DNA of 64,000 bases from Chrysomallon squamiferum (taxonomy: Eukaryota; Animalia; Mollusca): contig CM022674.1 in the NCBI GenBank assembly GCA_012295275.1, positions 17,174,001-17,238,000 on the forward strand, written 5' to 3'. Every line of letters starts with the position of its first letter. Position 1 is the stretch's first letter. Below the pieces are notes generated by a model. It had not been told where the DNA came from. It searched no databases and saw only the letters and a program-made list of their open reading frames with translations. The position numbers were made by a program, and so were the translations under genes. Shown here piece by piece: positions 4,360 through 62,722 of the stretch.

Positions 4360-8160
<3,801 letters not shown>

Positions 8161-15179: not shown

Positions 15180-15226
<47 letters not shown>

Positions 15227-15968: not shown

Positions 15969-15993
15969 TTGGTACTTCAGTTCAGTTACTATT
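15969..15993 (+). other. Probable Oxford Nanopore ligation adapter remnant at a contig end
   Basis: ttGGTACTTCAGTTCAGTTACTATT resembles the adapter AATGTACTTCGTTCAGTTACGTATTGCT; the first ~17 nt are absent from the otherwise near-identical duplicate at ~29950. Confidence 0.7.
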
Positions 15994-16325: not shown

Positions 16326-16370
<45 letters not shown>

Positions 16371-16849: not shown

Positions 16850-16935
<86 letters not shown>

Positions 16936-20934: not shown

Positions 20935-20967
20935 CAAAGACTGATGAACGAGCGTCCCATATGAAAG
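20935..20967 (+). CDS. 33-bp linker micro-exon of the STAND-ANK gene (copy B), (T)KTDERASHMK(E)
   Basis: tttcag|ca ... aaag|gtataa; phase 1-1, in frame with the 21250 exon; same exon in copy C at 58852-58884. Confidence 0.7.
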
Positions 20968-24200: not shown

Positions 24201-27200
24201 AATGACAATTCTATTTTACACTTAGCAGCTAAATGTGGAAATGCAGAAATTGTGACAGCACTGATTGAAAAAGGTGTTGACGTTAATGTTAAGAACAGTC
24301 AAGGTAAAACTCCTCTTTTTACAGCTGTTGTGTTTCAGCATCACAAAATAGTTTTGTATTTACTAAAACAAGGAGCTGATCCTCATTTAAGAGACAATGA
24401 TAACAATTCTGTTTTACACTTAGCAACCAAATGTGGAAATGCAGAAATTGTGATATCACTGATTGAAAAAGGTGTTGATGTTAATGTTAAGAACTGTCAA
24501 GGTGAAACTCCTCTTTTTACAGCTTTTAAGTTGAAGAAATACAAAATATGTTTGGATTTATTAAAACAAGGAGCTGATCCTAATTTAACAGACAATGATC
24601 ACAATACTGTTTTACACTTGGCAGCTGAATATGGAAGTCTAGAAATTGTGACAGCACTGATTGAAAAAGGTGTTGATGTAAATATTAAGAACAGTGAAGG
24701 TGAAACTGCTCTTACTAAATTTCTGAAATTCAACACATTTTATTATCTTGAATATCCAACTATGTCCTTTGATGAGACAAACGTAGCTTTGGTTTTACTA
24801 AAACATGGAGCTGATCCTAATATAATAGATAATGAGAACAATTCAGTTTTAGACTTAGCAGCTAAAAGTGGAAACAAAGAAATTGTGACAGCACTGATTG
24901 AAAAAGGTGCTGATGTAAATGTTAAGAACAGAAAAGGTGAAACTCCTCTTTTTACAGCTTTTAAGTTGAAGAAATACAAAATATGTTTGGATTTATTAAA
25001 ACAAGGAGCTGATCCTAATTTAACAGACAATGATCACAATACTGTTTTACACTTGGCAGCTGAATATGGAAGTCTAGAAATTGTGACAGCACTGATTGAA
25101 AAAGGTGTTGATGTAAATGTTAAGAACAGAACAGGTGAAACTCCTCTTTTTACAGCTGTTGTGTTTCAGCATCACAAAATAGTTTTGTATTTACTACAAC
25201 AAGGAGCTGATCCTCATTTAAGAGACAATGATAACAATTCTGTTTTACACTTAGCAACCAAATGTCGAAATGCAGAAATTGTGAAAGCACTGATTGAAAA
25301 AGGTGTTGATGTAAATGTCAAGAACAGAGAAGGTGAAACTCCTCTTGTTACATTTCTGAAATACTACCGTTTAAATGTTTCTCGTTACAATCTACATGTG
25401 TCCTCTTATATACCAAAACTAGCTTTGTTTTTACTGGATCATGGAGCTGATCCTAATTTAACAGACAATGATAACAATACTGTTTTACACTTGGCAGCTA
25501 AATATGGAAGTCTAGAAATTGTGAAAGCACTGATTGAAAAAGGTGTTGATGTAAATGTTAAGAACAGAGAAGGTGAAACTCTCCTGTTTACATATCTGAA
25601 ATACTACTATTTAGGTGATTGTCTTGACGATCTAGATGAGTCCTCTTATATACCAAAACTAGTTTTCGTTTTACTGGAACATGGAGCTGATCCTAATTTA
25701 ACAGACAATGATAACAATACTGTTTTACACTTTGCAGCTAAATGTGGAAATGCAGAAATTGTGACAGCACTGATTGAAAAAGGTGTTGATGTAAATGTTC
25801 AGAACAGAAAAGGTGAAACTGCTCTTTTTACAGCTTTTAAGTTGAAGAAATACAAAATATGTTTGGATTTATTAAAACAAGGAGCTGATCCTAATTTAAC
25901 AGACAATCATAACAATTCTGTTTTATACTTGGCAGCTAAATGTGGAAATGCAGAAATTGTGACAGCACTGATTGAAAAAGGTGTTGATGTAAATGTTAAG
26001 AACAGAAAAGGTGAAACTCCTCTGTTTACATTTCTGAAATACTACTGTTTAAATGTTTCTCGTTACGATCTATATGTGTCCCCTTATACACCAAAACTAG
26101 CTTTGTTTTTACTGGATCATGGAGCTGATCCTAATTTAACAGACAATGATAACAATACTGTTTTACACTTGGCAGCTAAATATGGAAGTCTAGAAATTGT
26201 GAAAGCACTGATTGAAAAAGGTGTTGATGTAAATGTTAAGAACAGAGAAGGTGAAACTCCTCTTTGTACCTTTCTGAAAGATTACTGTATAAGTGTTTGT
26301 TGTTACGATCTAGATGTGTCCTCTAATATACCAAAACTAGATTTGTTTTTACTGGAACATGGAGCTGATCCTAATTTAACAGACAATGATAACAATTCTG
26401 TTTTACACTTGGCAGCTGAAAGTGGAAATGCAGAAATTGTGACAGCACTGATTGAAAAAGGTGTTGATGTAAATGTTCAGAACAGAAAAGGTGAAACTCC
26501 TCTTTTTACAGCTTTTAAGTTGAAGAAATACAAAATAGGTTTGGATTTATTAAAACAAGGAGCTGATCCTAATTTAACAGACATTGATAACAATACTGTT
26601 TTACACTTGGCAGCTCAATCTGGAAATCTTGAAATATTGATAGCACTGATTGAAAAAGGTGTTGACGTTAATGTTAAGAACAGTCAAGGTGAAACTCCTC
26701 TTTTTACAGCTGTTGTGTTTCAGCATCACAAAATAGTTTTGTATTTACTAAAACAAGGAGCTGATCCTCATTTAAGAGACAATGATAACAATTCTGTTTT
26801 ACACTTGGCAGCTCAATCTGGAAATCTTGAAATATTGATAGCACTGATTGAAAAAGGTGTTGACGTTAATGTTAAGAACAGTCAAGGTGAAACTCCTCTT
26901 TTTACAGCTGTTGTGTTTCAGCATCACAAAATAGTTTTGTATTTACTAAAACAAGGAGCTGATCCTCATTTAAGAGACAATGATAACAATTCTGTTTTAC
27001 ACTTAGCAACCAAATGTCGAAATGCAGAAATTGTGAAAGCACTGATTGAAAAAGGTGTTGATGTAAATGTTAAGAACAGAGAAGGTGAAACTCCTCTTGT
27101 TACATTTCTGAAATACTACTGTTTAAATGTTTCTCGTTATGAGGTATATGTGTCCTCCTCTATACAAAAACTAGTTTTGGTTTTACTGGAACATGGAGCT

Positions 27201-27620
27201 GATCCTAATTTAACAGACAATGATAACAATACTGTTTTACACTTGGCAGCTAAATGTGGAAATGCAGAAATTGTGACAGCACTGATTGAAAAAGGTGCTT
27301 ATGTAAATGTTCAGAACAGAAAAGGTGAAACTCCTCTTTTTACAGCTTTTAAGTTTCAGAAATACAAAATAGGTTTGGATTTATTAAAACAAGGAGCTGA
27401 TCCTAATTTAACAGACAATGATCACAATACTGTTTTACACTTGGCAGCTAAATGTGGAAATGCAGAAATTGTGACAGCACTGATTGAAAAAGGTGTTGAT
27501 GTAAATGTTAAAAATGGTCAAGGTGAGACTCCTCTTGACAAAGCTAAGAGTAACCGAAGGGAAATTGTTTCCTATTTATTGGAGCATGGTGGTAAATGTA
27601 GTAACATAAATACATTTTGA
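21250..27620 (+). CDS. Giant terminal exon of NLR-like STAND NTPase (nSTAND3-type)-ankyrin repeat protein, copy B
   Basis: Uninterrupted 2096-aa ORF, extendable upstream to acceptor ttcag|ag at 21250 (ESTRSQLNSVDWRVYVETRAEERG...). Walker A GCPGSGKT at 21360-21383, Walker B IVLIDDIFG, sensor-like IITLR. The YVET...GxPGSGKT...hhhhDDhFG pattern is typical of nSTAND3. About 17 di-ankyrin modules follow (HLAAxxG.EIVTALIEKGVDVN / GETPLFT..LLxxGADPN). Confidence 0.93.
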
Positions 27621-29480: not shown

Positions 29481-30302
29481 AGCTTTATAATGATTTACTT
29501 TTAATTTACTTGTTTGTTTTTCAGTGATGCAAAACAGAAAGTATTTTCTAATGTGCTAACCTTTGCTGCTTATGTCACTATTACATAAACTGTATGCAAT
29601 GTGTCAGTTTATGTATTGTTTTTTTAATACACTGATACAATTTATTTTGTTTGGGATATATGTATTGTTTATAATACTTGGCTATTGTTTTCAGTTAATA
29701 TTTTTCATACATTTATTTTATCTTCATACACTGAATAAGAAGAGAAAGACTTTTTTCTTTTTTCAAAAGAAATATATTTATATATTTATTTGTTTATTTA
29801 TATTATTATCATTATTATTAATTGGGAATATGTTTATTTATTCTTACTTCTATGTATTTAATCATTAGAATATGCTGATTCAGTTTGAATAGCAAATACT
29901 TGTATATGTTTTTAATTACACTGATTCTTTTTTTCTTATTTAATTTGCATGATAGAATGTTTTTACTATTTTTATTTTGTGAATCAACTAACTTTAGTTC
30001 AATCTTCAGTTTACATTTTTTCTATCAATTAACTGTTTCTTTAATTAATAGATGAAAATGAACAAATGGTGTTTGTCTATCACTTGTTACACATCCCATT
30101 TGTTGCATACCTAGTAGTAACAGCTGAAGTGTAATTAAGTCATTTCCAGTAATATTAGTGTAATAGTTACAGTGCTTTTCATTTTATTAATACAAAAATA
30201 CAACTTTATATATAGTAATAATAATAATAGAAAGAAAGAAAGAAAAAAGCTTAGGAAAATATCTTCTAGTACACAAAAGTAAAGATCCTAATTTTCATAT
30301 AG

Positions 30303-30348
<46 letters not shown>

Positions 30349-30556
30349 ATCTGTTATATCTGGTATATCTGTTCTTGTTTTTAATAATTTGAGGCACTAT
30401 AAATCATAGATAAATTATTTTTGAACTAAGATTGGATAAAACAAAATATGTTGATGATGATGATAAATAAATAAATAAAACATATCTTGAAGTATACATA
30501 ATGTATTTAGGCTATTTAATTGTATGTAAACAGCGTCATAAATTGTGGACTCTTAC

Positions 30557-30826
30557 CTACAGTACCTTTCCCACATGGGTAGATTCTGAATGCGAAACAA
30601 AGATTTCAATTTGACTTCCGATTTGTTCATGGTAGAGAAAATTATTTTATCACAGTTTTCACCTCCTCGTCTTCGGTCAAGTCATCAAGTTTTAGTTTCA
30701 CCAGTTCTACTGGTTGGTAACAGTCTAGAGGGAACCAGTTGTCTGGGAGAGTTGGTGAACGTGGAAACTTCTTGAACGAAAGACATCGATGAACTCTGCA
30801 TTTTATTATATAATAAAAATAAAAAT

Positions 30827-30907
<81 letters not shown>

Positions 30908-33326
30908 TAAACAGTTTAAAAAAAATGAAGTATGATATTAAGATATACGATAACGACAGACAAGGTTTTAAAACGTTAGGAGAAAAAAATATATAAAATA
31001 AGTAAAAATGAGGTGCAAAATATCGCAATCGAAAGTTATCGTTCTTGTACAATGTTTTCCTATTTACACTGTTTTTTTTTTGTCTCTGTACATCATCACT
31101 GGAAACAAAAAGCAGGTCTCCTCAGCAGTCGTCTTTGTTTTAATGTATTCAAATTTGTTTGGGTCATCTCCCTAAAATTTATTTTATACTGACATTTGTC
31201 TGTTTCAAAGTTGTAAAATGGTTGCCCAGCCAAGTACTTCAGTTCAAGAGTATATTGCAGACTTTCCTAAAATAAACACAATATGCTGTTTTATATAATA
31301 TTATAGAACGTGTAATGTGATATATCATATGATATATGTTATAGGGTAATGTAATTTCAGGTGTGTGTCATGACGTGTAGTTCTTTGACTATGTATGAAT
31401 GAGATATGTGATTATTTTTATTTGATAAATACTAATATATTAGAAACACAATGTTATAGGTATTAACATGAACATTTTAAACATCTCTTTCTTTCTGTCT
31501 TCTTACTTTTTTTTTAATTGATGCTTTATAAATTTTCATTTCTTTAAATATTAGTTATCTTTGCTACCTATAATATTGGTTATTGTAGATGTTTTATTAT
31601 TTTGTTTTTTTTTTAATTTTATTTTTGAAGTAAGGAAACAAATAAATAAATAAATAGAACAAATAAAAAATAAAATAAAACAAATAAGATGTTTAAGAAG
31701 AAAGCAGTTCAACAATAAAATAAAATGAATATTCACTGGTTCATAAGGCAAACAATTTCCAGAGTCTGCCTCAAAATACCAACACCACTGTGTGAGCTGT
31801 GTGAAGTTGTCTTCTTGTGCAGTGACATACGATGCTGTTGAGAGACGCTGAACTTTGACATCAACCACTCCCAGTTCCAAACAAACTAAAACTCTCATTA
31901 AGTGAAAATCAACAACAGTTGGAATGAAGTTACTGGCAAATGCAATAGAGAAATTCTTTGAAAATGAAAAAAAAAAAAATATCTGTCTATATATACGAGT
32001 GTAGATTATAGATATAGATGTAAATTTTAATTAGTGGCACAAAAAAAAAAGTAATAGTAGAATTGTAATACGATTAACCCATAACATGTTTTCATATTGT
32101 TGTGTAGTAGTAAGTAATAAAAATAGTAAAAGAGTATACGTAAAACAAGAGAGGAAATCTTCTGAGATGTCATAATGTACTATTATTTTTCAAAATATTT
32201 TTTGAATACATACGTTTTCAAAAAAGAGAAAAAACTTAGGACATTGGTTAGATCAGGATCCAAGGAGGACTGAACTGGTGGCCAATACCTTCTCAAGGAT
32301 GTACTCTGAAACAAAAGTAAAACTGCATTATCATATGTCACTGTTATTAAAACTTATACTTTATTCCATGTTCATTTATCGCTTCTGGTTGTTTTTTTAA
32401 TTCACCTCTATATTTCCTGTGTCTGACATCAGACTACAAAAGCTCTGCTCGATCATCTCATTCTCCACTATGTCAAAGTTGACCCATTTGTCACAAATCT
32501 CCATCTGCCACTGGTAATGTAGATATCTTTGTGTGTGGGTATTTGAATGTATTACACAGTGACTCCATACACATTTCTCATAAAGCAGACCTTCTATCTC
32601 GTTGCTGTAATTCATTATTTCAAGGCTGTCATTCACATCAAGTTGTTTCTGCTGTGAAAGTTGAGCTGGATGTGCTTTGACTTTGACATCAAGTTGTTTC
32701 TGCTGTGAAACTTGTACTGTATCTGCTTTGACTTTGACATCAAGTTGTTTCTGCTGAGAAACGTGTGCTGGATCTGCTTTCACTTTGACATCAAGTTGTT
32801 TCTGCTGTGAAACTTAATGTGGATTTGCTTTGACTTTTTACACGTAATTGTTCTTCCTGTGAAATTCGTGCTCTATCTCCTGTAACTTTCACGCCAAGTT
32901 TTTTTTTCTGTGCATCTTGTACTGGATAAGCTTTCCTCTTCATATCAAGTTGTTTCTGCTGTTTTTGAGACGGAACTCTATTAATTTTGACATCAAGCTG
33001 TTTTGCCTTTATACCTGTTTTAGATCTCCTTTTACTTTCAACCCAAGTTGTTTCTCTTCTAAATCTTCTATTGTATCTGCTGCGACTTTCCTGTCAAATT
33101 GTTCCTGTTCTGGAAGATCATCTTGGTAATACCACCCACTCGTTTCGAAGACGGCAATATCATCAAATTTATCAAAGTGAGATATACTTCTGAAATAAAA
33201 TATAACAGTGAATCAGTGATTTCTCTTAAATCTTCCACATTTTCATCATTAAATATAACATTGACTGTTTTTCTATTTTTAAATGCATTTTATATTGAAT
33301 TAACAAAACTTTGGTAAATTTGTATC
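30557..33326 (-). pseudogene. WWE-WWE-PARP pseudogene fragment, copy 2 (cut by the gap)
   Basis: Near-identical to copy 1 at an offset of about +13.98 kb, with the same stop codons. Confidence 0.8.
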
Positions 33327-33526
33327 NNNNNNNNNNNNNNNNNNNNNNNNNNNNNNNNNNNNNNNNNNNNNNNNNNNNNNNNNNNNNNNNNNNNNNNNNN
33401 NNNNNNNNNNNNNNNNNNNNNNNNNNNNNNNNNNNNNNNNNNNNNNNNNNNNNNNNNNNNNNNNNNNNNNNNNNNNNNNNNNNNNNNNNNNNNNNNNNNN
33501 NNNNNNNNNNNNNNNNNNNNNNNNNN
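33327..33526. other. Assembly gap (200 N)
   Basis: Run of N. Confidence 1.
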
Positions 33527-37900: not shown

Positions 37901-39045
37901 AGGTATAAATACTCTCGTGTCAGGTTGATATGGTAGAATAGGTTTTGAGTCCATGTAACGATAAACAATATAATCGTCACACATTCAGTTTTCTGCAACA
38001 TTTAATAACTAAGACTACAATTCTATGCTTTGGGTAAATACCCGTATGTACTTCTGTATTTAATCTCTGAACTACGTCAGATGTTCTCTGTCCTTACAAA
38101 TATCACTAGCAGCAGAAGAACAAATCGTAAAAAATATTTAAATATTCAGTAAAATGTCTACTGATACGGCCATGATCTAAATTGCAAGATTACATAAATT
38201 TATAACTTAGCTTTCATTGGATAATATTTATTTATTTTATTTATTTATTTTTTTTTTATTTTTATTTTTTATTTGTTAGTTTCTTTATTTTTGTCGTTTT
38301 TTATTATCATTATTGTTATTTATCATTTTGTATTTTTTAGATTTGTTTTTTTTTTATTATCATTATTTTTATTGCTATTATTATTATTTTTTAAGTCGAT
38401 TTTTTGGGAGACTTTTTTTAAGTAATAGTGGCAAAACTATTTTATACTTATTATTTTTTAAATATCGATTGTCTATTTTTACGGGATGCATCTGAATTAA
38501 TTAAAATGTTATTTTCAAAATATAATTTTATCCATAAAACATTTTGAAAAATTAAATATCAAAACCAATATGTTAAACAGATATCTTCCATTTAATGACA
38601 TAAAAATACATTTTAAAGCGATAAAACCGTCAGTATGCGTTATATCGGCGTCTTGCAAATGATCTAGGAATGCAGACTTCTCTACCAAATTGCACTAAAT
38701 ATATTCCTACAGGAGGTATAAAAACTCACTCGTGTCAATTTGATACGGCCATGCAATCGTCAAATTACCGAAAATCGAAAACAAATAAATTTATAACTTA
38801 GCTTTCATTGGTTAATATTTATTTATTTACTATAGGTTATTTATTTATTTATTTATTTATTTATTTGTTAGTTTCTTAGATTGTCAATGTTTTTTATTAT
38901 CTAAAAATTATTGCCTGGAATCTATTATTATTATTTTTCAATTTTTCTTAAAATACACATCGACTTATACAGTGGCAAAACTATTTTATACTTATTATTT
39001 TTTAAATATCGATTGTCTATTTTATACTTAAAATGTTATTTTCAG

Positions 39046-39575
39046 GCATTTGAAACATGTCTAAAAAAAAGAGATAGTATACTTGGCAGATAGAATTTTA
39101 CAAATAGTAGAAAGTTCTGATAATTCAGTATTAAATGTATTTAAAAAAAATAGAAAAACAGTCAGTGTTATATTTAATGATGAAAATATCACAACTGGTG
39201 AAGATTTAGGAAAAATCACTGATTCACTGTTATATATTTTCAGAAGTTTATCTCACTTTAATAAATTTGATGATATTGACGTCTTCGAAACGAGTGGGTG
39301 GTATTACCAAGATGATCTTCCAGAACAGGAACAATTTGACAGGAAAGTCACAGCAGATGCAATAGAAGATTTAGAAGAGAAACAATCTGATTTGAAAGTA
39401 AAACTAATTCTAAAACAAATTGGTATCAAACTGAAAACAATTCCATGTCAAAAATTAGAAAAGATTTCCGTCTGAAAAAAGCAGAAACAACTTGGAAGAA
39501 AAAAAGTGAAAGCAGATCTAGTACAAAGTTTCAGAACAAAGAAACAACTTGATGTCAAAGTGAAATCAGAAACAA
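39046..39575 (+). pseudogene. Third, more diverged 5' fragment of the same PARP-like gene
   Basis: ttttcag|gcattt acceptor as at 19398; DRILQI...FNKFDDIDVFETSGWYYQDDLPEQEQFDRKVTAD matches copies 1 and 2; TGA at 39473-39475; truncated after KQLDVKVKSE. Intron 37955-38050 matches ~19500-19598 inverted. Confidence 0.75.
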
Positions 39576-39842: not shown

Positions 39843-42342
39843 GCGGCAGATGTGATAAAATGAATAAATGTTATGAATAACTATAATTTTAACTATGTGA
39901 ATGTTATGAATGACTATACTTTTAACTATGTGAATGTTATGAATGTCCAATTATTTGTAGATGTAATAAAATGAACAAATGTTATGAATGACTATAATTT
40001 AACTATGCAGTAAAATAAACGATGAAGTGATCGAACGATTTTTTTCAGGTTATTTATTGATATAGACTATTCCATACTCGCTTATTGTATTAGGGGTTAG
40101 CGCGTATCAGTGATTTTTATATAAGAACAGTAGAGTTCTGTATAAGAACAATAATACGGAGACACCGCGTGTTATTCAAGGTAAATAGCAGGTTATTAGT
40201 AACGCGCTCAACCTTGTCTTGTATTGTTTAATGCCTCCGCGTTATGGGACCTCAGTCTTTTGGGAGGTCACCCACAGATTCACGAGTCAGTATGACACAA
40301 AGAATTACATTACACAGGTGTGTGCGTCAGTAGTATATACAAAGAATTATATTACATGGATGTTTGGGTCAGTAGGCTATATAAGTGAATACATTACAGG
40401 GTACAAAGGTCAGTACGATTTACAACGGACTATATTACAGTGGTATATGGGTTGGAAGGGTTGACAAAGATTTACATTACAGCGTTCAAGATCTGAGCAT
40501 ATTTCTCAAAAACAATATTACAATCAGGCAAGACACATTAAAGGAACAAGTTATATCAGACTGTGTTACAGATGTGTATGGTTATCTTTTCATTACATTT
40601 TGAAGTTTATTGTTACGTGAGATTTTTGTTATAAGGGCAATGTATAATTAATTATATTGCTGACGTTAAATGGGTCATTTGTAGTTATATATAATAGTGG
40701 TGTACTGACCACGTAGAATTAAATCATATCGGTACAGGTGTCAGATATATTGATATATGGTATCATAAGAGGCCGTAGGATCAATCCTTCTTAGCGTACC
40801 CTTTGCATTATATTTCTTCTTAGCGATGAGATATGTGTGTATGCACACACACACACACACACACAATTATTGGTAACTGAAAACCTCTTTTTTTTCTTTC
40901 GTACAATTATCATGTAGATAAAAGGATTGTTGGTAAATTTAGACTCACTGACTATTCAGTTATTTTATATATCTAAATGTCAGTCACTATCTTGGTTACT
41001 CACACTGATACACTGAAGGAACGGAAAACAATTTAATTTACACATTTCATTTCCTTTGTTACTTTTCCTCATATAAATGATTACTGCTTGACAGTCACAT
41101 AATAACAAAAAGTTAGTTGGGCATAATTACATGCAAGCCATTCATTAAAATGAATATTACTCGTAGTCATGCAAAAAGAGTTCTGTCAAAGATATCCATG
41201 CTTAAGAAAAGAAAAACTATTTTTTTTATTTATATTTAATATTTATCTTATTGCTATTGATTTATGTATATGATCTTCTATCACTGTATTAAATCAAATG
41301 CTATTATAATTTTTATGATATATTTTAGATAGCGAAAAAGACCTGTAACTTAACTGATCTAAAGGTTGATATATATCGATAAACAAACCGATTAGAAAGA
41401 AATATACATAGATACGGACAGACAGACAGACAAATCAGTGGTTGAAATGCTTTGGTGTTATTATTTTTATTAGTATTATTTTATTATTTTTATTAGTATT
41501 ATTTTATTATTTGTATTAGTATTAATAAAATAGTTTCTTATATGCATTTATGTTAACATATTGTATTGTCTTGATTACTCATAAACAATAAATAAAATTT
41601 ACCGAATTGTAATATCTTTCTTATATTATAACAAGAGTTAATTACAGCACAATTTAACTACTTCATGAAGTTTAATGTTTAAGTCTTGTGTAATTTCCAC
41701 ACACAACAAATACTAATTGGAAATTATTTAAAATGTTAACTACAAAATGCTTATTTCCCGTTCTAGATATCTCATACGAAAATTGATTAATAAACACTTT
41801 TTCGTCTAACCAATTTATTTATTTAGAAGAAGCATAAACAACCAGAAACAGTAACTGGAAAAGTGTAATGACCGAGTTCAAAGAAATTACATAAAGAGAT
41901 TTTCAGAGAGAAAGAAAACAAAACTAAATCACACACACTTTACAGCTTTAGTTTAGTTATTTCAGAAATGCTAAATAAGAAGGTTTGAAACTATATACAT
42001 TTCATTTTTTAAATGTGATGTATGGCTACAGTATCAGGACAGTTTCAAGTAACAACATACATGTACAGGGGAAAAGACCGCTTTTGTGTGTGTGTATGTA
42101 TGTGTGTGACTGTGTGTGTGTGTGTGTGTGTGTGTTTATGTGTCTGTTTCTAAGGTGGAGGCATACATTCGTATGATTCTTTCTCTTTCGTTTACAGATG
42201 CATTAATATTGTATGTAATTTACACTAATACAGTTAATAATATGCATATTTTAAACGTTATTTACAAACAAATAAAAACACAAAGTTTCAAAAAACAAAA
42301 TCCTCTGTACTATTAAAGAGATTGTTTTTCACATTTGCTTAC

Positions 42343-42992
42343 CTCTATTGCCCGTTCTAGAACGTGGTCCCGTAGTGAGAACTTCTCGTCAACATCTAGT
42401 TGTCTCATCTTGACAAAACCAATCATTCCTGCTTTCTCAACACACGAATGATCCTGAAACGTGTCAAAGTAGATTGTGCAGTTTTCAGTACGAAACGTCT
42501 CAGTGAAATCAAACTGGTAAGTAAAAGTGTGGAACCCAGATAAACAGAAATCAAGATGGATTGATTGACGGACGAACGAACAAAATAGTCTGACTGATTA
42601 GGAGTCTACAGATGGAGAGACTGACACTGATAAATAGATATACAGACAGAGAGATGGATGTACTGACAACGATACATACATGTATATAGTCAGAAATGGA
42701 CGGACAGAGAGAGAAAGACAAAGGTACAGAAGAATAGTTTTGACAGACAGATAAGACAATAAGTAAATAAACTAAGAGATAATACAGTAAATAAACTAAC
42801 AAACTGAACCATAAAGGAGACATGCTGAAGGACAGATCACATAAAATTAATACTGACTAGTTTTGACGAATAAGCTACGAGTCTCGATAACAACATTCCA
42901 TCTTCGATGGAAGGGAGGCGACTCTTGAGTTTGCCGATGGTGGCATTTCTGGCGGCGAGTAAGGCTACAAGTACACACTTGCTAGCTGATCC
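42343..42992 (-). pseudogene. Tdc: Two orphan exons of a group II PLP-dependent aromatic amino acid decarboxylase, most like tyrosine decarboxylase
   Basis: Exon 42992-42858 (135 bp, ccag|gga...cta|gtcagt) = GSASKCVLVALLAARNATIGKLKSRLPSIEDGMLLSRLVAYSSKL. Exon 42453-42343 (111 bp, tcag|gat...gag|gtaagc) = DHSCVEKAGMIGFVKMRQLDVDEKFSLRDHVLERAIE. These match the family motifs GSASE..LVALLAAR and AHSCVEKA.MIGFVK. Other exons not found. Confidence 0.82.
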
Positions 42993-43383
42993 CTGGATAT
43001 TAAATATTGCATTTTTATAGTGTCTACTCTGGATTTTTGATTTTAAATATGTGCTTTTGTAATGTTTACTGTAGATGATGCAATTGAAATATATATTTTT
43101 TGTAGTTTTTTCTACAAATTTTGAATATTAAATATTCATTTTTTAGTGTTTATTGTAGATTTTTTATGTTAAATATGTATGTTTGTATTATTTACTCTAG
43201 ATTTTGGATACTAAATTTGTATTTTCGAAGTGTTTACTGTAGATTTTGGAGATAAAATTGATCATTAAGGTGTTGTGACTTTTTCAAATACCTTGAACCG
43301 TTAAATATTGACTGTTAACCATGATGATATAAATATCATATTTAAACGTCTGCCTGAGACATGTAGTTATATATCTCTCTCTA

Positions 43384-50926: not shown

Positions 50927-53900
50927 TCAAAATGTATTTATGTTACTACCTTTACCACCATGCTCCAATAAATAGGAAACAATTTCCCTTCGGTTACTCT
51001 TAGCTTTGTCAAGAGGAGTCTCACCTTGACCATTTTTAACATTTACATCAACACCTTTTTCAATCAGTGCTATCAATATTTCAAGATTTCCATATTGAGC
51101 TGCCAAGTGTAAAACAGTATTGTGATCATTGTCTGTTAAATTAGGATCAGCTCCTTGTTTTAATAAATCCAAACATATTTTGTATTTCTTGAAACTTAAA
51201 AGCTGCAAAAAAGGAGTTTTCATCAGCACCTTTTTTTTCTGTTCTGAACATTTACATCATTGTCTGTTAAATTAGGCACCATGTTTTTCAATCAGTGCTG
51301 TCTAGATCGTAACAATTTCTGCTTTTTCCACTTTTTCTGTTTTATTTGCCAACCTTTGTAAAACAGTATTGTTATCATTGTCTGTTAAATTAGGATCAGC
51401 TCCATGTTCCAATAAAACCAAAACTAGTTTTTTTTTGTATGAGAGAAGGACACATATACCTCTGTCACAATTTCTGCATTTCCACATTTAACGAGTAAAA
51501 CAAACATTTAAAAGTAGTCAGCTCCATTTCAGTAAGAAATGTAACAAGAGGAGTTTCACCTTCTCTGTTCTTAACATTTACATCAACACCTTTTTCAATC
51601 AGTGCTTTCACAATTTCTGCATTTCGACATTTAGCTCCAAAGTGTAAAACAGTATTGTTATCATTGTCTGTTAAATTAGGATCAGCTCCTTGTTTTAATA
51701 AATCCAAACATATTTTGTATTTCTGAAACTTAAAAGCAGTAAAAAGAGGAGTTTCACCTTTTCTGTTCTGAACATTTACATCAACACCTTTTTCAATCAG
51801 TGCTGTCACAATTTCTAGACTTCCATACTGAGCTGCCAAGTGTAAAACAGAATTGTTATCATTGTCTGTTAAATTAGGATCAACCCCAAGTTCCAGTAAA
51901 ACCAAAGCTAGTTTTGGTATATTAGAGGACTTATCTAGATCGTCAGGACAAACACTTAAACAGTAGTCTTTCAGATATGTAAACAGAGGAGTTTCACCTT
52001 CTCTGTTCTGAACATTTACATCAACACCTTTTTCAATCAGTGCTATCAATATTTCAAGATTTCCAGATTGAGCTGCCAAGTGTAAAACAGTATTGTTATC
52101 AATGTCTGTTAAATTAGGATCAGCTCCTTGTTTTAATAAATCCAAACCTATTTTGTATTTCTGAAACTTAAAAGCTGTAAAAAGAGGAGTTTCACCTTTT
52201 CTGTTCTGAACATTTACATCAACACCTTTTTCAATCAGTGCTGTCACAATTTCTGCATTTCCACTTTCAGCTGCCAAGTGTAAAACAGAATTGTTATCAT
52301 TGTCTGTTAAATTAGGATCAGCTCCATGTTCCAGTAAAAACAAATCTAGTTTTGGTATATAAGAGGACTCATCTAGATCGTAACGACAACCACCTAAAAA
52401 GTAGTCTTTCAGATATGTAAACAGAAGAGTTTCACCTTTTCTGTTCTTAACATTTACATCAACACCTTTTTCAATCAGTGCTGTCACAATCTCTGCATTT
52501 CCATGTTCAGCTGCTAAGTGTAAAACAGAATTGTTATCATTGTCTCTTAAATTAGGATCAGCTCCTTGTTTTAATAAATCCAAACATATTTTGTATTTCT
52601 GAAACTTAAAAGCAGTAAAAAGAGGAGTTTCACCTTTTCTGTTCTGAACATTTACATCAACACCTTTTTCAATCAGTGCTGTCAATATTTCAAGATTTCC
52701 ATATTGAGCTGCCAAGTGTAAAACAGTATTGTTATCATTGTCTGTTAAATTAGGATCAGCTCCATGATCCAGTAAAAACAAAGCTAGTTTTGGTATATAA
52801 GAGGACACATATAGATCGTAACGACAAACATTTAAACAGTAGTATTTCAGAAATGTAAACAGAGGAGTTTCACCTTTTCTGTTCTTAACATTTACATCAA
52901 CACCTTTTTCAATCAGTGCTGTCACAATTTCTGCATTTCCACATTTAGCTGCCAAGTGTAAAACAGTATTGTTATCATTGTCTGTTAAATTAGGATCAGC
53001 TCCATGTTCCAGTAAAAACAAATCTATTTTTGGTATATTAGAGGACACATCTAGATCGTAACAACAAACACTTATACAGTAATCTTTCAGAAAGGTACAA
53101 AGAGGAGTTTCACCTTCTCTGTTCTTAACATTTACATCAACACCTTTTTCAATCAGTGCTGTCACAATTTCTGCATTTCCATGTTCAGCTGCTAAGTGTA
53201 AAACAGAATTGTTATCATTGTCTCTTAATTTAGGATCAGCTCCTTGTTTTAATAAATCCAAACATATTTTGTATTTCTGAAACTTAAAAGCAGTAAAAAG
53301 AGGAGTTTCACCTTTTCTGTTCTGAACATTTACATCAACACCTTTTTCAATCAGTGCTGTCACAATTTCTGCATTTCCATATTGAGCTGCCAAGTGTAAA
53401 ACAGTATTGTTATCATTGTCTGTTAAATTAGGATCAGCTCCATGATCCAGTAAAAACAAAGCTAGTTTTGGTATATAAGAGGACACATATAGATCGTAAC
53501 GAGAAACATTTAAACAGTAGTATTTCAGAAATGTAAACAGAGGAGTTTCACCTTTTCTGTTCTTAACATTTACATCAACACCTTTTTCAATCAGTGCTGT
53601 CACAATTTCTAGACTTCCATACTGATCTGCCAAGTGTAAAAGAGAATTGTTATCATTGTCTGTTAAATTAGGATCAGCTCCTTGTTTTAATAAATCCAAA
53701 CATATTTTGTATTTCTTCAACTTAAAAGCTGTAAAAAGAGGAGTTTCACCTTTTCTGTTCTGAACATTTACATCAACACCTTTTTCAATCAGTGCTGTCA
53801 CAATTTCTGCATTTCCATATTGAGCTGCCAAGTGTAAAACAGTATTGTTATCATTGTCTGTTAAATTAGGATCAGCTCCATGTTCCAGTAAAACGAAAAC

Positions 53901-56900
53901 TAGTTTTGGTATATAAGAGGACTCATCTAGATCGTCAAGACAAACATCTAAATAGTAGTCTTTCAGATATGTAAACAGAAGAGTTTCACCTTTTCTGTTC
54001 TTAACATTTACATCAACACCTTTTTCAATCAGTGCTGTCACAATTTCTAGACTTCCATACTGAGCTGCCAAGTGTAAAAGATAATTGTTATCATTGTCTG
54101 TTAAATTAGGATCAGCTCCTTGTTTTAATAAATCCAAACATATTTTGTATTTCTGAAACTTAAAAGCTGTAAAAAGAGGAGTTTCACCTTTTCTGTTCTT
54201 AACATTTACATCAACACCTTTTTCAATCAGTGCTGTCACAATTTCTGCATTTCCACATTTAGCTGCCAAGTGTAAAACAGTATTGTTATCATTGTCTGTT
54301 AAATTAGGATCAGCTCCATGTTCCAGTAAAAACAAATCTAGTTTTGGTATATAAGAGGACTCATCTAGATCGTCAAGACAAACATCTAAATAGTGTTCTT
54401 TCAGATATGTAAACAGAAGAGTTTCACCTTCTCTGTTCTTAACATTTACATCAGCACCTTTTTCAATCAGTGCTGTCACAATTTCTGCATTTCCACATTT
54501 AGCTGCCAAGTGTAAAACAGTATTGTTACCATTGTCTGTTAAATTAGGATCAGCTCCATGTTCCAGTAAAACCAAAACTAGTTTTTGTTTATAAAAGGCG
54601 TCCTCTAGATCGTCAAGACAAACATCTAAATAGTAGTCTTTCAGATATGTAAACAGAAGAGTTTTACCTTCTCTGTTCTTAACATTTACATCAACACCTT
54701 TTTCAATCAGTGCTGTCACAATTTCTAGACTTCCATACTGAGCTGCCAAGTGTAAAAGAGAATTGTTATCATTGTCTGTTAAATTAGGATCAGCTCCTTG
54801 TTTTAATAAATCCAAACATATTCTGTATTTCTTCAACTTAAAAGCTGTAAAAAGAGGAGTTTCACCTTTTCTGTTCTGAACATTTACATAAGCACCTTTT
54901 TCAATCAGTGCTGTCACAATTTCTGCATTTCCACATTTAGCTGCCAAGTGTAAAACAGTATTGTTATCATTGTCTGTTAAATTAGGATCAGCTCCATGTT
55001 CCAGTAAAACGAAAACTTGTTTTGGTATATAAGAGGACTCATCTAGATAGTAGTCTTTCAGATATGTAAACAGAAGAGTTTCACCTTTTCTGTTCTTAAC
55101 ATTTACATCAGCACCTTTTTCAATCAGTGCTGTCACAATTTCTATGTTTCCACTTTCAGCTGCTAAGTCTAAAACTGAATTGTTCTCATTATCTATTATA
55201 TTAGGATCAGCTCCATGTTTTAGTAAAACCAAAGCTACGTTTGTCTCATAAAAGGACATAGTTAGATATTCAACAAAATAAAATTTGTTGAATTTCAGAA
55301 ATTTAGTAAGAGCAGTTTCACCTTCAGTGTTCTTAATATTTACATCAACACCTTTTTCAATCAGTGCTGTCACAATTTCTACATTTCCATGTTTAGCTGC
55401 TAAGTGTAAAACAGAATTGTTATCATTGTCTGTTATATTAGGATCTCCTCCTTGATTTAGTAAATAAAAAAGTATTTGGTAATGCTGAAACTCAACAGCT
55501 GTAAAAAGAGGAGTTTCACCTTGACAGTTCTTAACATTAACATCAACACCTTTTTCAATCAGTGATATCACAATTTCTGCATTTCCACATTTAGCTGCTA
55601 AGTGTAAAATAGAATTGTAATCTTTCAGATTACCGTCAGCTCCATGATTAAGTAAAACCAAAGCTATTTTTGTCTTAACAGAAGACATCGCTAGATCTAA
55701 ATAATCTAATTTGTCATAATTCAGAGCTGTAAAAAGAGGATTTTCACCTTTCCTGTTTTTTACATTTACATCAACACCTTTTTCAATCAGTGCTGTCACA
55801 ATTTCTTCATTTCCATGTTTAGCTGCTAAGTGTAAAACAGAATTGTTATCAATGTCTGTTAAATGAGTATCAGCTCCTTGCTTTAGTAAATATAAAGCTA
55901 TTTTTGGTCTGTGACATGTCAAGGATACATGAAGAGGAGTTTTATGTCCAGTGTTAATTGCATTTATTTGAGCACCCTTTTTTATTACTTCTTTCACAAC
56001 ATCTATGTGAATTTCAGAGGCTATATGCAATGCAGAATTCTTGTAGTAATCTGTTATATGCGTATCAGCACCATTTTCCAGTAAGAACAAAGCTACTTCC
56101 TTCCTGTTTCTCACAGCATTTACAGCTTCATGAAGTGGAATTTTTCCCTCAGTGTTTACTGCATTAACATCAGCATTTTTCTTTATTAGTGATTTTATCA
56201 TATCTAAGTCACCACGGAGAACTGAAAGATGGAGGGGTGTATATGAAGGCAACATGTCAAAATTAATTTTGACACCAAACAACATTTCAAATTCAATTTC
56301 TTCTTTAAACAACTGAATCAATTTCTGATTAACAGCTACATTCACATTTGGATCAGCTCCTTTATCAAGAAGACACTGAACAACATCTGCACTGTTAAAC
56401 ATAACTGCCGCTTTCAGTACTTGACTTTTCTTCCAGGTCTCATCTCCATCATTACATCTCTGCTCAATGAGAAAATTCACTGTATCAGTGGCTCCCCATA
56501 CTGCTGCTGCTAAAAGTACTTTATCTCTGTTCTCATCATTTAAACAGTCAGGTTTCAGTTTTACTATTTCTTTTATAACACCTGAATTACTCTGAGAAGC
56601 AGCAACAACACCAATGTCTTTAACTTTGTTTATTATATCAATGGTAACCAGTTTTTTAAAAAGACGGCTAAGATCAACAACTTCTGAAGTCTTCGACTTC
56701 CCAAAATGCCATTTTCTTGAATCAAGTCTTACTTGTCTATGGAACCTAACCAATAACAGTTTAATGGCTTTTTCCTTGATTTCACTGTTGTGTTTCTCAT
56801 ATTTTATCTTTCCAGCTAACAGACATGCAACCTTCATATTACCTGAACAAATAGAAGCAAGTAAGAGATGTGAATAATCATTCAATTTCATCTCAGTTTT

Positions 56901-58566
56901 ACACTGTAACAGTTCTTTGAGTATGGTAACACTGTCGGTTTTGGAACAAGCAGCTGCAGTCAATGTTTCAGGTGATGGAATACAACCTGATTTTAGCAAC
57001 ATTATCACAACATCTTCATCACCAAACAAACAAGAAATATTCAAAAGTTCTTTTTTCAGATTTGCTAATTTCATTTTACACAGATATTCAGAGAAAAATC
57101 TTGACAATGTTGTTAATCCGTTCACAATACACTCACTTTGAACAGATGATGAAATTTCAAAATATTTTTTAGTATCCAGATACATGTAAATAGAACTCTT
57201 TGAATAACTGTCAAGAAGACATGAAATATTGCTAAATATTTCATCAAGATTGACTACGTTTACAGATGATATACACAAATGTTCATGTTTAGGTAGTTGT
57301 TGATGCAATATTTCAGACAATTTATTATTAAAGTATTTCTCCTCTATCAGATACTTGACAAACTCTTCATCTTTCAATGATGGATGTGAAATAATGTCTT
57401 TGGCATTGCTTGATGCCAACAAGTCACCAAATCTCCGAGCAAGAACATCAAAGCAGTTAGGTTTTACAGTCATTGTAATGTGACTTTTGTTAGACACTCC
57501 AGGCGTCACAACATATTCTAACAACATGGAGACAGGGACACATTTCTAGCAACTCTGCTGCTTTCTTTGGAAACTGTGATGAAAACGTCAGAAACAATGA
57601 GTCAAACACTGACTGGTGAATAAATGTGTATTCATTGTCAGAACACTTCAAATAGGTACCACACATTTCATCAGCTGCCTTCTTTATAGCTGTGAGACCA
57701 GAGTTCAGACCAGTATTCAGACAGGCTTTCTCTAGCAGTCTTACTAATTTCATTATGTGACTGTCAGAGTCATTTTCAAATGGGTCCAGTAAATCAATGC
57801 TGAGACTGCCTTGTTGGAACAACATCAGCAGTAGAACCAGGTACTTTATCTGTGAATAATTTATCAGTTTTCAAATCTTCCAGTTGTTGTGTGAGATATT
57901 CTACAGGATTCTTAAAAAACTTAACTCCTCTATTCTGTGCATCACTTGAATTAACATAATACACACACACCTGAGGAAATCCTAACTCTGTACATGAACA
58001 GGAAATCACTGTCCCTTTATCCCATTCATTCATTGTAACATTCTTTTGTTTCAGATACTTGTTTAGAATTTTCGACTTCTCATCATAATTCAGACAACAT
58101 TTATCGCTCTGCAGGTCAAGAAGATTATTTTCATTGAAAAGATCAAATTCCTTCAAATTGGCTATAATTTCTCTAAATATTTGTTTTCTTAAAGTAATAA
58201 TACATCTCACACGCTTATCTTTAACAAGACTCCGCACCTCTGGAAATAGCTGTTTCCAGCACGACACAAAATCTAATACAAGATTAGTTTTACCAAATAT
58301 GTCATCAATGAGAACAATACATGGTTTATCTTTAGACGCAGGAATGTATTTGAAATCAGAGTGATGAGTCATGATGTAAGAGTCTATTTTTTCTTCTTTC
58401 TCTATCTGTTTAATCATGTTCAGACCTAGAGTTGTTTTTCCTGAACCTGGACATCCTACTACAATCACAACACCATTCTTTTTCAAAAGTGTTACTCCTC
58501 TTTCTTCTGCTCTTGTTTCAACATAGACTCTCCAGTCAACTGAGTTTAACTGTGACCTGGTAGACT
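50927..58566 (-). pseudogene. Giant terminal exon of STAND-ANK gene copy C, frameshifted as assembled (pseudogene or consensus errors)
   Basis: ORFs 57794-58486, 57490-57825, 51465-57527 and 50927-51229 are consecutive pieces of a protein colinear with copy B. There is a 5-nt deletion at ~57856/57857, a 1-nt insertion at 57535-57537 and a scrambled stretch at ~51200-51530. About 22 di-ankyrin modules; acceptor atacag|ag at 58566. Confidence 0.85.
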
Positions 58567-58851
58567 CTGTATCACAACATTAAAACAAAATAATATCTAT
58601 TATTAACACCTTTTAAATATATTTTACTATTTAAATACAGATAATATAATTTTTGAAACTAGTCATCATCAGATGTGAAGTTTTAAAATAAAGCAGCAGT
58701 TATTTGCTATAATTTACTTGATCAGAATTTAATGACAATACCATGATATCACAGTTTTAGATGGTGTAAAAGTAACAATGATTACGTTCTTATAAATTAA
58801 CATCTTACAGAAGTAAAAAAAACTACTACATAAAATAAAATAAGATTATAC

Positions 58852-58884
58852 CTTTCATATGGGACGCTCGTTCATCAGTCTTTG
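58852..58884 (-). CDS. 33-bp linker micro-exon, copy C
   Basis: Same sequence as 20935-20967, AG/GT intact. Confidence 0.7.
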
Positions 58885-59105
58885 CTGAAATGATATAAGA
58901 ATAAAACAAGTAGTTTTTATATTATTGATGATGAGCAAAAGAGAATTATTAAAGTGATATGTACTGTTACTTTGTACTTTATTCATGGAACAGTCAACAT
59001 ATAACATTATTATTATATCTTTCTGATTTATTTTACTATAATTATTACTACTACTATTAAAACTACTGTTGTTGTTATTTCTCACTATTCTAATACTTAT
59101 TGTTG

Positions 59106-59162
<57 letters not shown>

Positions 59163-59272
59163 TCTTTAATGTTTTTCAGTAGTTGCAAGGGAAAATAATG
59201 ACATATATTGGCTTGATTAATGTATGCTGAATTATCTTAATAAGAAAATCTAGATAAGATTGATGGCACTTA

Positions 59273-59315
<43 letters not shown>

Positions 59316-60962
59316 GCTGTGTGTGTGTGTTTGGGTGGGACGTCATAAGCACATAAGTCAAAAGTCCGCTGGCGTAACATTTGTTATTATGAATGTTATT
59401 TTAATTATTATTTTATAAATATTAACAAATCATAAACTTCAAACATTTAGTTCCTAATTATAAGCACTCCTAGGTAGTCCATGACTTCAGTTTCTTCAAA
59501 TTGTCCATCGAGTGTTAGGAAGGCTGCTTTGGATCTCACAGATTTGGGAGATTTTTAAATTACTGATTGGCCAGCATTAACATGTGTTATGACATTTTCC
59601 ATATGGAACTGTTCTTATTTGATTGATGCAGGATTAAATTGTTCAATTTCACAACTTACAATAATTATTTCTCAGATCCATATGCAGATCATCCACTGCA
59701 CACAATATGAATAAAATCTGTGATTTGTTAGTATTATTGAATAAAACAATATGTTTTAAAACAGTGTAAAATTAAAATTCCTTATATTAAATGTCTGCAT
59801 ATATGTGTTTTTATGGGGTTTTTTATTGTTTATATATACATGTATGTATGTATTGTCTATGTTTGTCTGGATGTTGTTCAGGTCACAGTCTCTGACACAA
59901 AAATACTAATGAGTATTTTGAGGCATATTCTAATAAACAGGCAGACAAAAGAAAAGCTTCCATTTTCGACTTAAACTCACAGCCTACAAGTGTTATTTCT
60001 AAAAGTGTTTGTAGCTATATGAAGGACATACAGTATAAAAAGTAAGTGTGTGCGTGTGTGTGTGTTTGTGTGAGTGTGAGTGTGTGTATGTGCTTTTGTA
60101 TATATGATCAGCTATTGCTAAAACATGCATATTGACATAAGATAACGAAAATGACAATTTTATAAGCAGTTTCTAAAAAACAAAGGTGAGAAAAAATGTC
60201 TAACTGCAGATAATAGCAGATCACAGTATAATTGGATAGTGCACTGGTTATTGGTTGAGGTAGGTCACACATGACCAGTGGGTTTTGTATTATTGGCAAC
60301 ATTAATGGGTTCAAGAAATTTAGTCAGTCTTTCATTTAATGAAAAATAAGTAATTTTGATATGGTAAAATTTAGCTATGTAGTTGCTAGAGGTCAGCACT
60401 GCAGTAAAATGACTTCTAAACAATTATTGAGTGAGCTATGTTATGCAGCTTGTCAGTTAATCAATCTAATTGTGTTGTTTTGCTTGTGTAGTACACTTCT
60501 GTTTTATCTTTCATCCAGTAAGATCACATACATACATACATACATACACACATACACACACACACAAACACACAAACCATCTGAGAGTGCATTTACTTCT
60601 TAATTCTACAATATAAAATTCCTGAATGTTTCAGCAAATTATTGATTGGGTTTTCTTTTGCATGCTATTTACATATGTTTACAGTTTTTTGCCAAATGTA
60701 TTTCTTGTGGACATGGCACATCAATATTAGAAACTGCTACAACATCAAAATACATGCATGATATATTGGAAAGGATATTGTATGTGAATGCCAAATATAT
60801 TCATATCACAAAAAAAAAAAAAAAAGACTTGTCTCCTTTATCATAAGTGGTCACATGTGTGGATGTTGTTCATTTTACAGTGTCTGAGACAAAAGCACTA
60901 ATGTGTATTCTCTTTTATACTAAACACGGACAGAAAAAGAAAACTTTCAATTTTCAACTTAC

Positions 60963-61049
60963 TAATGAACTTGTTTCCGGCTCCTATCTGAACCTTTTCA
61001 CAGTGACTTACGTTTACTGTTGGTTTTGCATGTTGTATTGTTTGAGTAT
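60963..61049 (-). CDS. RHIM exon, copy C: (D)TQTIQHAKPTVNVSHCEKVQIGAGNKFI
   Basis: ttcacag|at ... atta|gtaagt; 87 bp, phase 1-1. Canonical VQIG core at 60982-60993, in register with human RIPK3 PLVNIYNCSGVQVGDNNYL. Confidence 0.8.
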
Positions 61050-61570
61050 CTGTGAAACAGAGTAAATACATTTTTAAGGACAGCATACAGTATTAATACA
61101 GTCAATTAAACGTAGTACTGCATATAACAATATTTCATTTAAAAATGTTTTTAACTGATTATATGCAGGTGCTATGCAATAAGTATTACTTTAAAGTATT
61201 AAAATGTATAACAGTAAATACAAGATTAATTGCAATGGTCATGATGAAGCAAATAAACAGTAACTAAAGTGTATTTTGCTTTATGTTTTTAATCTGTGAA
61301 ACAAAAACATGGTAAAAACTTTAAACGTAATTCATTATCAGTATAACTTGTCAATTGTCTAATGCCTAAGATGTAACTAAACAATACATTGAAACAGTGT
61401 ATTGATACAAATGTATATAGTACTTTTGTCATTTTAGAATTTACCAGCAATATATTGAAAGTAAACAATATATTGAAATATTATATTATTACAAATATAA
61501 AAATAATGTTGACTCTTTACAATTTCCTATTAAAAAAATAAACACTACATTGAAATGCTGTGTGTATTAC

Positions 61571-62040
61571 CACGACTGCTTGACACAGGTAGTTGTAAAT
61601 GATGTTCTATACGAATGATGTCAAAGGAAAACTGAGATGTGATGCCAGAGAGAGATACACTTGTCACATTGTCTAAGAGAGACACAGCTGTCACAGTCTC
61701 CCCAGAAGAAACAGCTGTCACAGTCTCTTCAGAAGAAACAGCTGTCAAAGTCTCTTCAGAAGAAACAGCTGTCACAGACTCTTCAGAAGAAACAGCTGTC
61801 ACAGTCTCTTCAAAAGAAACAGCTGTCACAGTCTCTTCAAAAGAAACAGCTGTCACAGTCTCTTCAGAAGAAACAGCTGTCACAGTCTCTTCAGAAGAAA
61901 CAGCTGTCACAGTCTCTGCAGAAGAAACAGCTGTCAGAGTCTCTTCGGGATAAACAGCTGCCACAGTCTCTGCAGAAGAAACAGCTGCTGTGTTAGAAGA
62001 ATCTTCTGAACTCACATTTTTGTCATCCATATTCCATGAG
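61571..62040 (-). CDS. S/T/E-rich N-terminal exon, copy C, with expanded 10-aa repeat (ETVTAVSSEE-like)
   Basis: 470 bp versus 200 bp in copy A (+270 = 9 x 30 bp); splice sites conserved; overlaps ORF 61545-62030. Confidence 0.72.
61680..61990 (-). repeat. 30-bp coding minisatellite
   Basis: Unit gaagaaacagctgtcacagtctcttca(gaa), about 10 copies. Confidence 0.95.
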
Positions 62041-62589
62041 CTGTAAAAAATAATATAATGATGTTTTATATAGAAAGGAAGAAATGAACTGTTTTATTTG
62101 CTTATTTTATTTACTTTCATATTGGTCAGACATAAGATTTAGGAACAGTCAGATAACAAAAACAAAGAAACCTACTGCAGTCACTTCACTCTCTACTCTG
62201 TCTTATTAACAACAAGTGATGTTTTATTTATACCTACCCACAAACAGTACAAACTATTGCACACATCAGGTGTTAAGCACTGCTAAAATGAAAACAGCTC
62301 AAGATTCCATCAGCAGGAATTGATCTAAATATATACTACACCTTGCACACTTTACTAGAGACCTACATCTAGTACCTTCTATTAATACTAGCATTGACTC
62401 ATAGACCGTATTCTCAATTTGGTTCTATAAATAAATGCCTGGAACATTTTTATAAAGAATCAAATAAAATATGCTTAAAATAAATATACTCATTCTTTAA
62501 AAAGAGGTCTTTGATCATGTTATTTAGAAATACTCAGGAAAACACAATTTCACAAACCTAAAAACATAGTTCTAATTAATTAGTCTTAC

Positions 62590-62722
62590 CTCATTTTGGA
62601 TTTGTTCTCTTCCATCTTCTTAGGGGTTGGTGATGGGCTGACTGGGGCAGGTTCTGGCTCTGGGTTCCTGTGTTTCTCAGCTGTTCTGCTGCTCTGATTT
62701 ACTAGTGTTATTCCACATTTTT
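62590..62722 (-). CDS. Upstream exon of copy C (open throughout: KCGITLVNQSSRTAEKHRNPEPEPAPVSPSPTPKKMEENKSKM)
   Basis: tttag|aa, atgag|gtaaga; 133 bp; paralogue of 12090-12220. Confidence 0.55.

Follow-up and report, generated by a model that had tools for sequence, protein, structure and literature searches.

A layout like that considered here, an N-terminal amyloid motif followed by a signal transduction ATPase with numerous domains (STAND) and a repeat sensor, is found in the fungal systems PNT1/HELLP of Podospora and NWD2/HET-S (PMC12881547). According to the same review, the fungal PP motif cross-seeds with human RIP homotypic interaction motifs (RHIMs). Likewise, bacterial BASS3 pairs of a NOD-like receptor (NLR) and a Bell protein place a RHIM-like motif with a phi-Q-phi-G core before the STAND NTPase (Dyrka et al., 10.1101/2020.01.06.895854). 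Here we describe a 64,000-nucleotide stretch of the genome of the mollusc Chrysomallon squamiferum (contig CM022674.1, positions 17,174,001 to 17,238,000; the window), in which three gene copies lie on segments parted by N gaps: paralogue A, copy B and, on the minus strand at 50927-62722, copy C. On balance, we favor the view that copy C represents a duplicated nSTAND3-ankyrin gene, which likely encodes an NLR-like immune receptor of a gastropod, and that the N-terminal linker predicted from its splicing carries a RHIM-like, likely amyloid-seeding motif.

The combination has an animal precedent. Kajava et al. reported many RHIM proteins in Branchiostoma in 2014, including the B. floridae protein BF82280, a RHIM-NACHT-repeat protein known by prediction only (PMC4262963). 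Like copy C, BF82280 comes from an invertebrate and has its RHIM in the usual place of a death-fold domain, followed by a STAND ATPase and repeats. It differs in that it was likened to NACHT-type fungal receptors, whereas the molluscan protein combines nSTAND3 with ankyrins. No experimental work on BF82280 was found in the literature. Because BF82280 was already reported, a layout of RHIM, STAND and repeats in an invertebrate is not new, and an earlier note on this DNA, made from the letters alone, overstated the matter in implying that it was. For molluscan nSTAND3 proteins, no report of RHIM-like motifs was found in the full-text literature, though subscription papers, figures or supplements may hold one, and nothing found in the literature from 2020 on joins nSTAND3 with RHIM.

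Copy C also departs from the microbial systems. The fungal receptors are of the NB-ARC or NACHT type and adjoin a HeLo-type effector gene, whereas no adjacent effector was seen for copy C, and its motif sits behind a linker of ~175 residues. BASS3 genes form two-gene operons with the Bell effector, and the residue before the core is K in the window motif, not G. The bacterial anti-phage sensor Avs5 (Sir2-nSTAND3-repeat) resembles copy C as a characterized nSTAND3 receptor with a C-terminal repeat sensor (10.1101/2025.07.08.663546). It has instead a fused enzymatic effector and TPR-type repeats, and no amyloid motif.

Predicted exons and the RHIM-like motif of copy C

Copy C is predicted to be spliced from minus-strand exons at 62722-62590, 62040-61571, 61049-60963, 58884-58852 and 58566 onward, which have AG/GT ends throughout and give a single open frame when joined. 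The junctions and the phases (2-1, 1-1 and 1-1) are those that the earlier note had proposed, and the peptide it quoted is indeed encoded by the 87-bp exon. The 133-bp exon (62590-62722) holds the first in-frame ATG at 62615 and may partly be 5' untranslated region (UTR); its paralogous counterpart at 12090-12220 has stop codons in all three frames. The 470-bp exon (61571-62040), in which no Pfam family reaches its cut-off, encodes a low-complexity linker with an S/T/E/V-rich repeat region, the residues ahead of the motif being mainly S, V, E, T and A. The repeat, a 27-bp coding unit present in 11.4 copies (61680-61987, minus strand), extends the linker ahead of the motif; in paralogue A the unit occurs just about once. 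The 87-bp exon (60963-61049, phase 1-1) carries the motif with its VQIG core and is followed by a 33-bp exon (58852-58884, phase 1-1), of which there is an identical copy at 20935-20967 on the plus strand in copy B. The large last exon (50927-58566) encodes the nSTAND3 NTPase, a helical/winged-helix region and the ankyrin array.

With residues numbered from the initial in-frame Met, the VQIG core lies at position 185 onward and the NTPase follows from about position 219. The RHIM-like motif is thus ahead of the NTPase but set back from the N-terminal end, behind the S/T/E/V-rich repeat region. The 82 open frames upstream of copy C and its paralogue yielded no death-fold family, further exons past position 64000 being possible. 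If spliced as predicted, copy C would have its motif ahead of the NTPase and no folded effector domain.

The isolated 28-residue exon scores 20.3 bits with the Pfam RHIM model (PF12721; E 3.9e-4; match at about 61017-60970) against a gathering cut-off of 20, which is borderline, and about 0.002 RHIM scores as high are expected by chance over all offsets in the six frames of the window. Copy C has the core tetrad (V/I)-Q-(V/I/L/C)-G, and paralogue A, with VLLG, does not. Deep mutagenesis of RIPK1 and RIPK3 showed that nucleation depends on aliphatic residues at 0, +2, +8 and +10, the core Gly being at +11 (10.64898/2026.02.19.706818); this spacing, which we derived from the residue numbers in that source, is present in the 87-bp exons of both A and C. 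The register with RIPK3 and RIPK1 asserted in the earlier note is borne out to the extent that the published aliphatic spacing and Gly fit the window peptide. Judged by its sequence, the RHIM-like motif is real and beyond chance, and it is likely to be an amyloid-seeding signal. The ESM Atlas returned nothing usable for the 87-bp exon or for the N-terminus of the homologue P0014.

The nSTAND3 domain (58049-58525, minus strand) matches PF20720 with E 5.8e-28 and has an intact Walker A motif (GCPGSGKTT) and Walker B-like motif (VLIDD), and ankyrin families in the Pfam scan of the window reach E<1e-180; the domain assignments of the earlier note thus hold for nSTAND3 and ankyrin and are borderline for RHIM. 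The NACHT model scores 13.9 bits on the NTPase against a cut-off of 26.7 (E 0.049), no LRR family is among the Pfam matches, and the protein is not a canonical animal NLR of the NACHT-LRR type. A fold model of the first 400 residues of copy B (predicted local distance difference test score, pLDDT, 89) matches NB-ARC, NACHT, Dark, MalT-system, SAMD9, Avs5, NOD2 and NLRC4 structures among general AAA+ folds, with template modeling (TM) scores of 0.3-0.5 for NB-ARC, NACHT, SAMD9 and Avs5. As modeled, the order of NTPase, helical/winged-helix module and C-terminal repeats is STAND-like.

Relatives and the slot ahead of the NTPase

A cluster-representative search gave 1003 matches at E<=0.001, and the best 150 of the 1003 were used. 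The nearest proteins are those of the vent snail Gigantopelta aegis (38-41% over 620 amino acids). In a quick tree of 87 NTPase domains, supported by the Shimodaira-Hasegawa-like approximate likelihood ratio test (SH-aLRT) only and excluding proteins with fewer than 30 N-terminal or 200 domain residues (P0042 among them), copies B and C group with six G. aegis proteins (SH-aLRT 99). In a MAFFT alignment, N-terminal motifs that sit directly ahead of the NTPase in five Gigantopelta proteins line up with those of the two 87-bp window exons. One of the G. aegis proteins, XP_041355392, has the full spacing pattern with a VQFG core, a tetrad that is natural in RIPK3 and functional when tested (PMC12119088). 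A peptide resembling the product of the copy C 33-bp exon sits before the NTPase in Gigantopelta homologues, and XP_041355986 has the motif, this peptide and the NTPase in the order of the window with similar spacing, a layout that lends the predicted junctions indirect support. P0001 and P0002 have a different Gly-rich stretch in this position, and P0003 and P0012 lack any N-terminal extension. Among more distant relatives, Solemya proteins have motif-like stretches (IQIG, TQIG, AQVG and IQLG; a single clade of four), as do proteins from Potamilus, Sinanodonta and scallops. Precomputed annotation assigns a RHIM to none of the 21 molluscan nSTAND3-ankyrin matches listed.

In other members of the family, the slot of the motif holds a Death, CARD, caspase, SAM, Ig or HEPN domain (20 proteins, picked by eye), HEPN being found in 17/86 N-termini. 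Molluscan nSTAND3-ankyrin proteins that begin with a HEPN_DZIP3, Death, CARD, caspase or SAM domain share the NTPase and ankyrin body of the window gene and differ in having a folded N-terminal domain where that gene has a short motif. Motif-bearing P0121 and P0128 are sister to HEPN-labelled P0150 in the NTPase tree, and analogous NACHT-HEPN expansions are described in pearl oyster (PMC9646362). At the family level, the layout of RHIM-like motif, STAND NTPase and ankyrins is supported by these comparisons, an amyloid-signaling NLR-like family in molluscs is likely, and the family context is better than the earlier note could show.

Two further observations concern the same slot. P0036, P0038 (Haliotis), P0041 and P0045 form one clade in which another motif, rich in Gly and Asn, immediately precedes the NTPase; it is repeated in P0036 and is a candidate second class of amyloid motif. 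In Haliotis rufescens, annotated isoforms of LOC124125868 (P0166, P0167 and P0170) of 198-219 amino acids stop right after a Gly-rich motif, without the NTPase; they are possibly decoys or adaptors.

Counter-evidence and rival explanations

A number of observations weigh against reading copy C as an amyloid-signaling receptor, and they bear on three rivals. No motif-bearing effector gene was seen in the 64-kb window, the neighbors being WWE-like and decarboxylase pieces; of the five other core-like matches in its six frames, four are antisense to NTPase exons and one is in a simple repeat.

Copy C is complete but broken as assembled. What the earlier note took for one giant NTPase-ANK exon is divided into four open reading frames (ORFs; 57794-58579, 57490-57870, 51465-57545 and 50927-51256) by two frameshifts and a garbled 3' stretch, and that note noticed neither the frameshifts nor that the VQIG core is not kept in the nearest paralogue or in most homologues. 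Relative to the plus-strand twin, the minus strand has a 5-nt deletion near 57856 (57850-57862), beside a short imperfect direct repeat, and a 1-nt insertion near 57537 (57533-57541), in a C run. Both frameshifts lie downstream of the NTPase core, and in the assembly the joined exons reach a stop 462 residues past the first in-frame Met. Near the 3' end, garbled ankyrin units (51200-51540; the stretch at about 51230-51490) look like poor consensus: 80/326 16-mers recur elsewhere in the arrays, versus 324/326 in an intact stretch. One intact reading frame is found in copy B only, whose large exon (21250-27620, plus strand) encodes 2122 residues of nSTAND3 and ankyrins. Its 33-bp exon is at 20935-20967, and in the assembly it is without a RHIM exon, homology beginning at 19612, inside an intron. 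Paralogue A (10891-15759, plus strand) has 5' exons only (12090-12220, 12779-12978, 13499-13585 and 14620-14718), no NTPase exon being seen before the N gap at 15769.

Copy C might be a recently broken duplicate in a fast-turnover cluster, either a pseudogene or the source of a truncated 462-residue product of motif plus NTPase, with amyloid signaling, if any, left to its paralogues. The two non-compensating frameshifts and the damaged 3' end fit such a history, as does the lack, among the three window copies, of one that is complete as well as intact. The codons that differ between copies B and C comprise 110 non-synonymous and 32 synonymous ones, near the neutral ratio of 2.5-3.5, which also counts against consensus error or recent breakage. 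In addition, copy C alone has a second, cryptic GTAAGT donor inside its RHIM exon (61011, phase 0). Splicing there would truncate the motif and change the reading frame; of the two donors, only the terminal one occurs in paralogue A. On the other hand, a 2026-residue open frame persists in copy C, and among 1049 codons compared between B and C, 142 changed and none became a stop (P 0.03-0.09 if half arose neutrally on copy C). Unlike in plain decay, coding identity (93.5-96.6%) is below that of the introns and 3' flank (98-99%), and the breaks fall at a C run, a short repeat and the repeat array, where consensus errors are expected. Because of the lack of stops, the greater divergence of coding sequence than introns and the poor 16-mer recurrence, a consensus error or very recent breakage is favored; consensus errors are more likely than old decay, and hold a modest edge over a recent true loss. 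We consider a broken duplicate unlikely.

It is unlikely, in our estimation, that the receptor is real and the motif is a beta-prone patch in a fast-evolving linker, with copy C reading VQIG by chance and the signal passed by another route, such as hetero-oligomers with paralogues that bear Death, CARD or HEPN domains. Several results speak for a non-working motif. The Pfam threshold is just reached, and with the isolated exon only; the 87-bp exon of paralogue A (13499-13585, plus strand), with its divergent VLLG core and the same aliphatic spacing, gives no Pfam RHIM match (0/1). Both window copies have charged residues in the motif loop. A search of PDB sequences with the exon peptide gave no matches, and one with the motif profile gave no RHIM and two unrelated matches. 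Relatives, to which the earlier note had looked for conservation, give a divided answer: the motif is alignable in five Gigantopelta proteins, but the canonical VQIG core is not conserved in paralogue A or in most homologues. The Pfam RHIM model matched 0/51 homologue N-terminal stretches (0/50, plus 0/1 for XP_041355392), the 50 having been chosen from 79 after omission of 29 that were apparent folded domains, very short or duplicates.

Across the family, the signal is mixed. The spacing and Gly pattern occurs in 4/69 non-HEPN N-termini, two of the four being near-copies of each other, versus 1.03 in shuffles (P 0.015), in 0/17 HEPN N-termini and in 1/68 control regions. Three looser patterns, written post hoc, give P 0.001-0.013, and a motif profile of the Gigantopelta clade found 9/62 held-out N-termini at p<=0.05, versus 3/62 controls and 0/17 HEPN. 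The aliphatic tetrad without Gly is not enriched (12 versus 15.2 in shuffles), the strict core occurs in 2/69 versus 0.59 in shuffles (P 0.13), and the loosest pattern exceeds expectation among controls as well (17/68 control regions versus 10.4; P 0.026). Eight patterns were tried, most of them devised after the sequences had been seen. A single-peptide BLOSUM scan was weak (9/78 versus 3/77), and de novo motif discovery by expectation maximization was overfitted (best likelihood 253-310 versus 209-229 for shuffles) and did not recover the motif. Enrichment of the motif in the family over shuffles is modest.

Against a chance patch stands the way the exon has changed. Between A and C, 17/84 coding bases of the 87-bp exon differ and 14/14 changed codons are non-synonymous (P 0.01-0.03; 0.03-0.06 on the 11 single-change codons), with an identity of 80.5% versus 89% in the flanking introns (Fisher P 0.024). 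The core has gone from VQIG to VLLG and the Pfam match with it, while the four aliphatic positions and the Gly outlast the 14 amino-acid changes. In the shared parts of the neighboring exon, 10/10 changes are also non-synonymous, and fast evolution is not specific to the motif. The pattern suggests that the 87-bp exon is coding and has diversified under selection while keeping its scaffold. The alignable motif in a second species, the low window-wide chance expectation and the function of variant tetrads such as VQFG in RIPK3 likewise oppose a non-working motif.

Finally, it is very improbable that the motif exon is a cassette mostly skipped or placed in short NTPase-less transcripts, the motif acting as a free decoy or adaptor: such an 87-bp phase 1-1 exon could be skipped without frameshift, and short products are represented by the Haliotis isoforms and by one 252-residue Gigantopelta model that terminates within the NTPase region, but NCBI models of Gigantopelta unite motif and NTPase within one protein, and the acceptor and terminal donor of the exon are kept in both window paralogues.

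The remaining features of the window concern its layout. Two gaps of 200 N (15769-15968 and 33327-33526) separate the gene copies, whose order and orientation depend on scaffolding. That A and B are one gene was rejected, as their intron sequences overlap at ~85% identity. The exon of paralogue A at 14620-14718 (99 bp, phase 1-1, plus strand) is an extra one that follows the motif exon; neither B nor C was found to have an equivalent. Copy B is flanked on both sides by copies of a 3.4-kb segment (15986-19340 and 29963-33326, 98.7% identical; related piece at 38971-39561), which weakly matches the WWE domain (E 9e-4), contains a 51-bp coding repeat and may reflect a segmental duplication or assembly redundancy. 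Between B and C, exon-sized minus-strand frames at 42316-43127 have pyridoxal-dependent decarboxylase matches (E 4.5e-6 and 2.8e-5, below cut-off) and are likely part of an aromatic amino-acid decarboxylase gene. Upstream of paralogue A on the plus strand are two duplicated short ATG-to-GT units (5003-5031 and 7372-7400) and, at about 9585-9665, an exon-like piece with every frame closed; these may be 5' UTR exons with upstream ORFs.

Proposed mechanism and its reach

If copy C or its paralogues encode an amyloid-signaling receptor, the fungal NWD2/HET-S and PNT1/HELLP systems offer a model for how it might work (reviewed in PMC12881547 and PMC7889193). We infer each step, from splicing and ligand sensing to oligomerization, amyloid and partner. 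Once the variable ankyrin array bound its ligand, the NTPase would be free to oligomerize, and oligomerization would cluster the motifs, held on a disordered tether ~35 residues ahead of the NTPase. The clustered motifs would then act as a template on which a RHIM-bearing partner from another locus assembles into amyloid, leading to NF-kB activation or cell death. A molluscan RIPK1-like kinase or an IMD-like adaptor is the most plausible such partner. RHIM partners do exist in molluscs, since zebra mussel RIPK1 needs its RHIM for maximal NF-kB activation and a bivalve iridovirus has a predicted CARD-RHIM protein with bivalve relatives.

A broader proposal, which we hold only tentatively, is that molluscs run fungus-like amyloid signaling at scale. 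Under it, the expanded nSTAND3-ankyrin family would swap folded effectors for short motifs diversified under selection into specificity classes, each templating its own partner. The classes would include a RHIM-like one in Gigantopelta, Solemya, scallops and freshwater mussels and the different Gly-rich motif in Haliotis. If true, this would answer the question, posed in PMC7889193, of whether RHIM is the sole signaling amyloid of animals.

NLR-type amyloid signaling is established in fungi and bacteria, while in animals it is predicted only. A multi-copy molluscan family whose RHIM-like motifs are under apparent diversifying selection supplies peptides of 20-30 residues for existing fibril and prion assays. 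Since database annotation misses the motifs, the family may have gone widely unnoticed; through it, the large and so far unstudied group of mollusc 'ankyrin repeat' genes would be connected with innate immunity.

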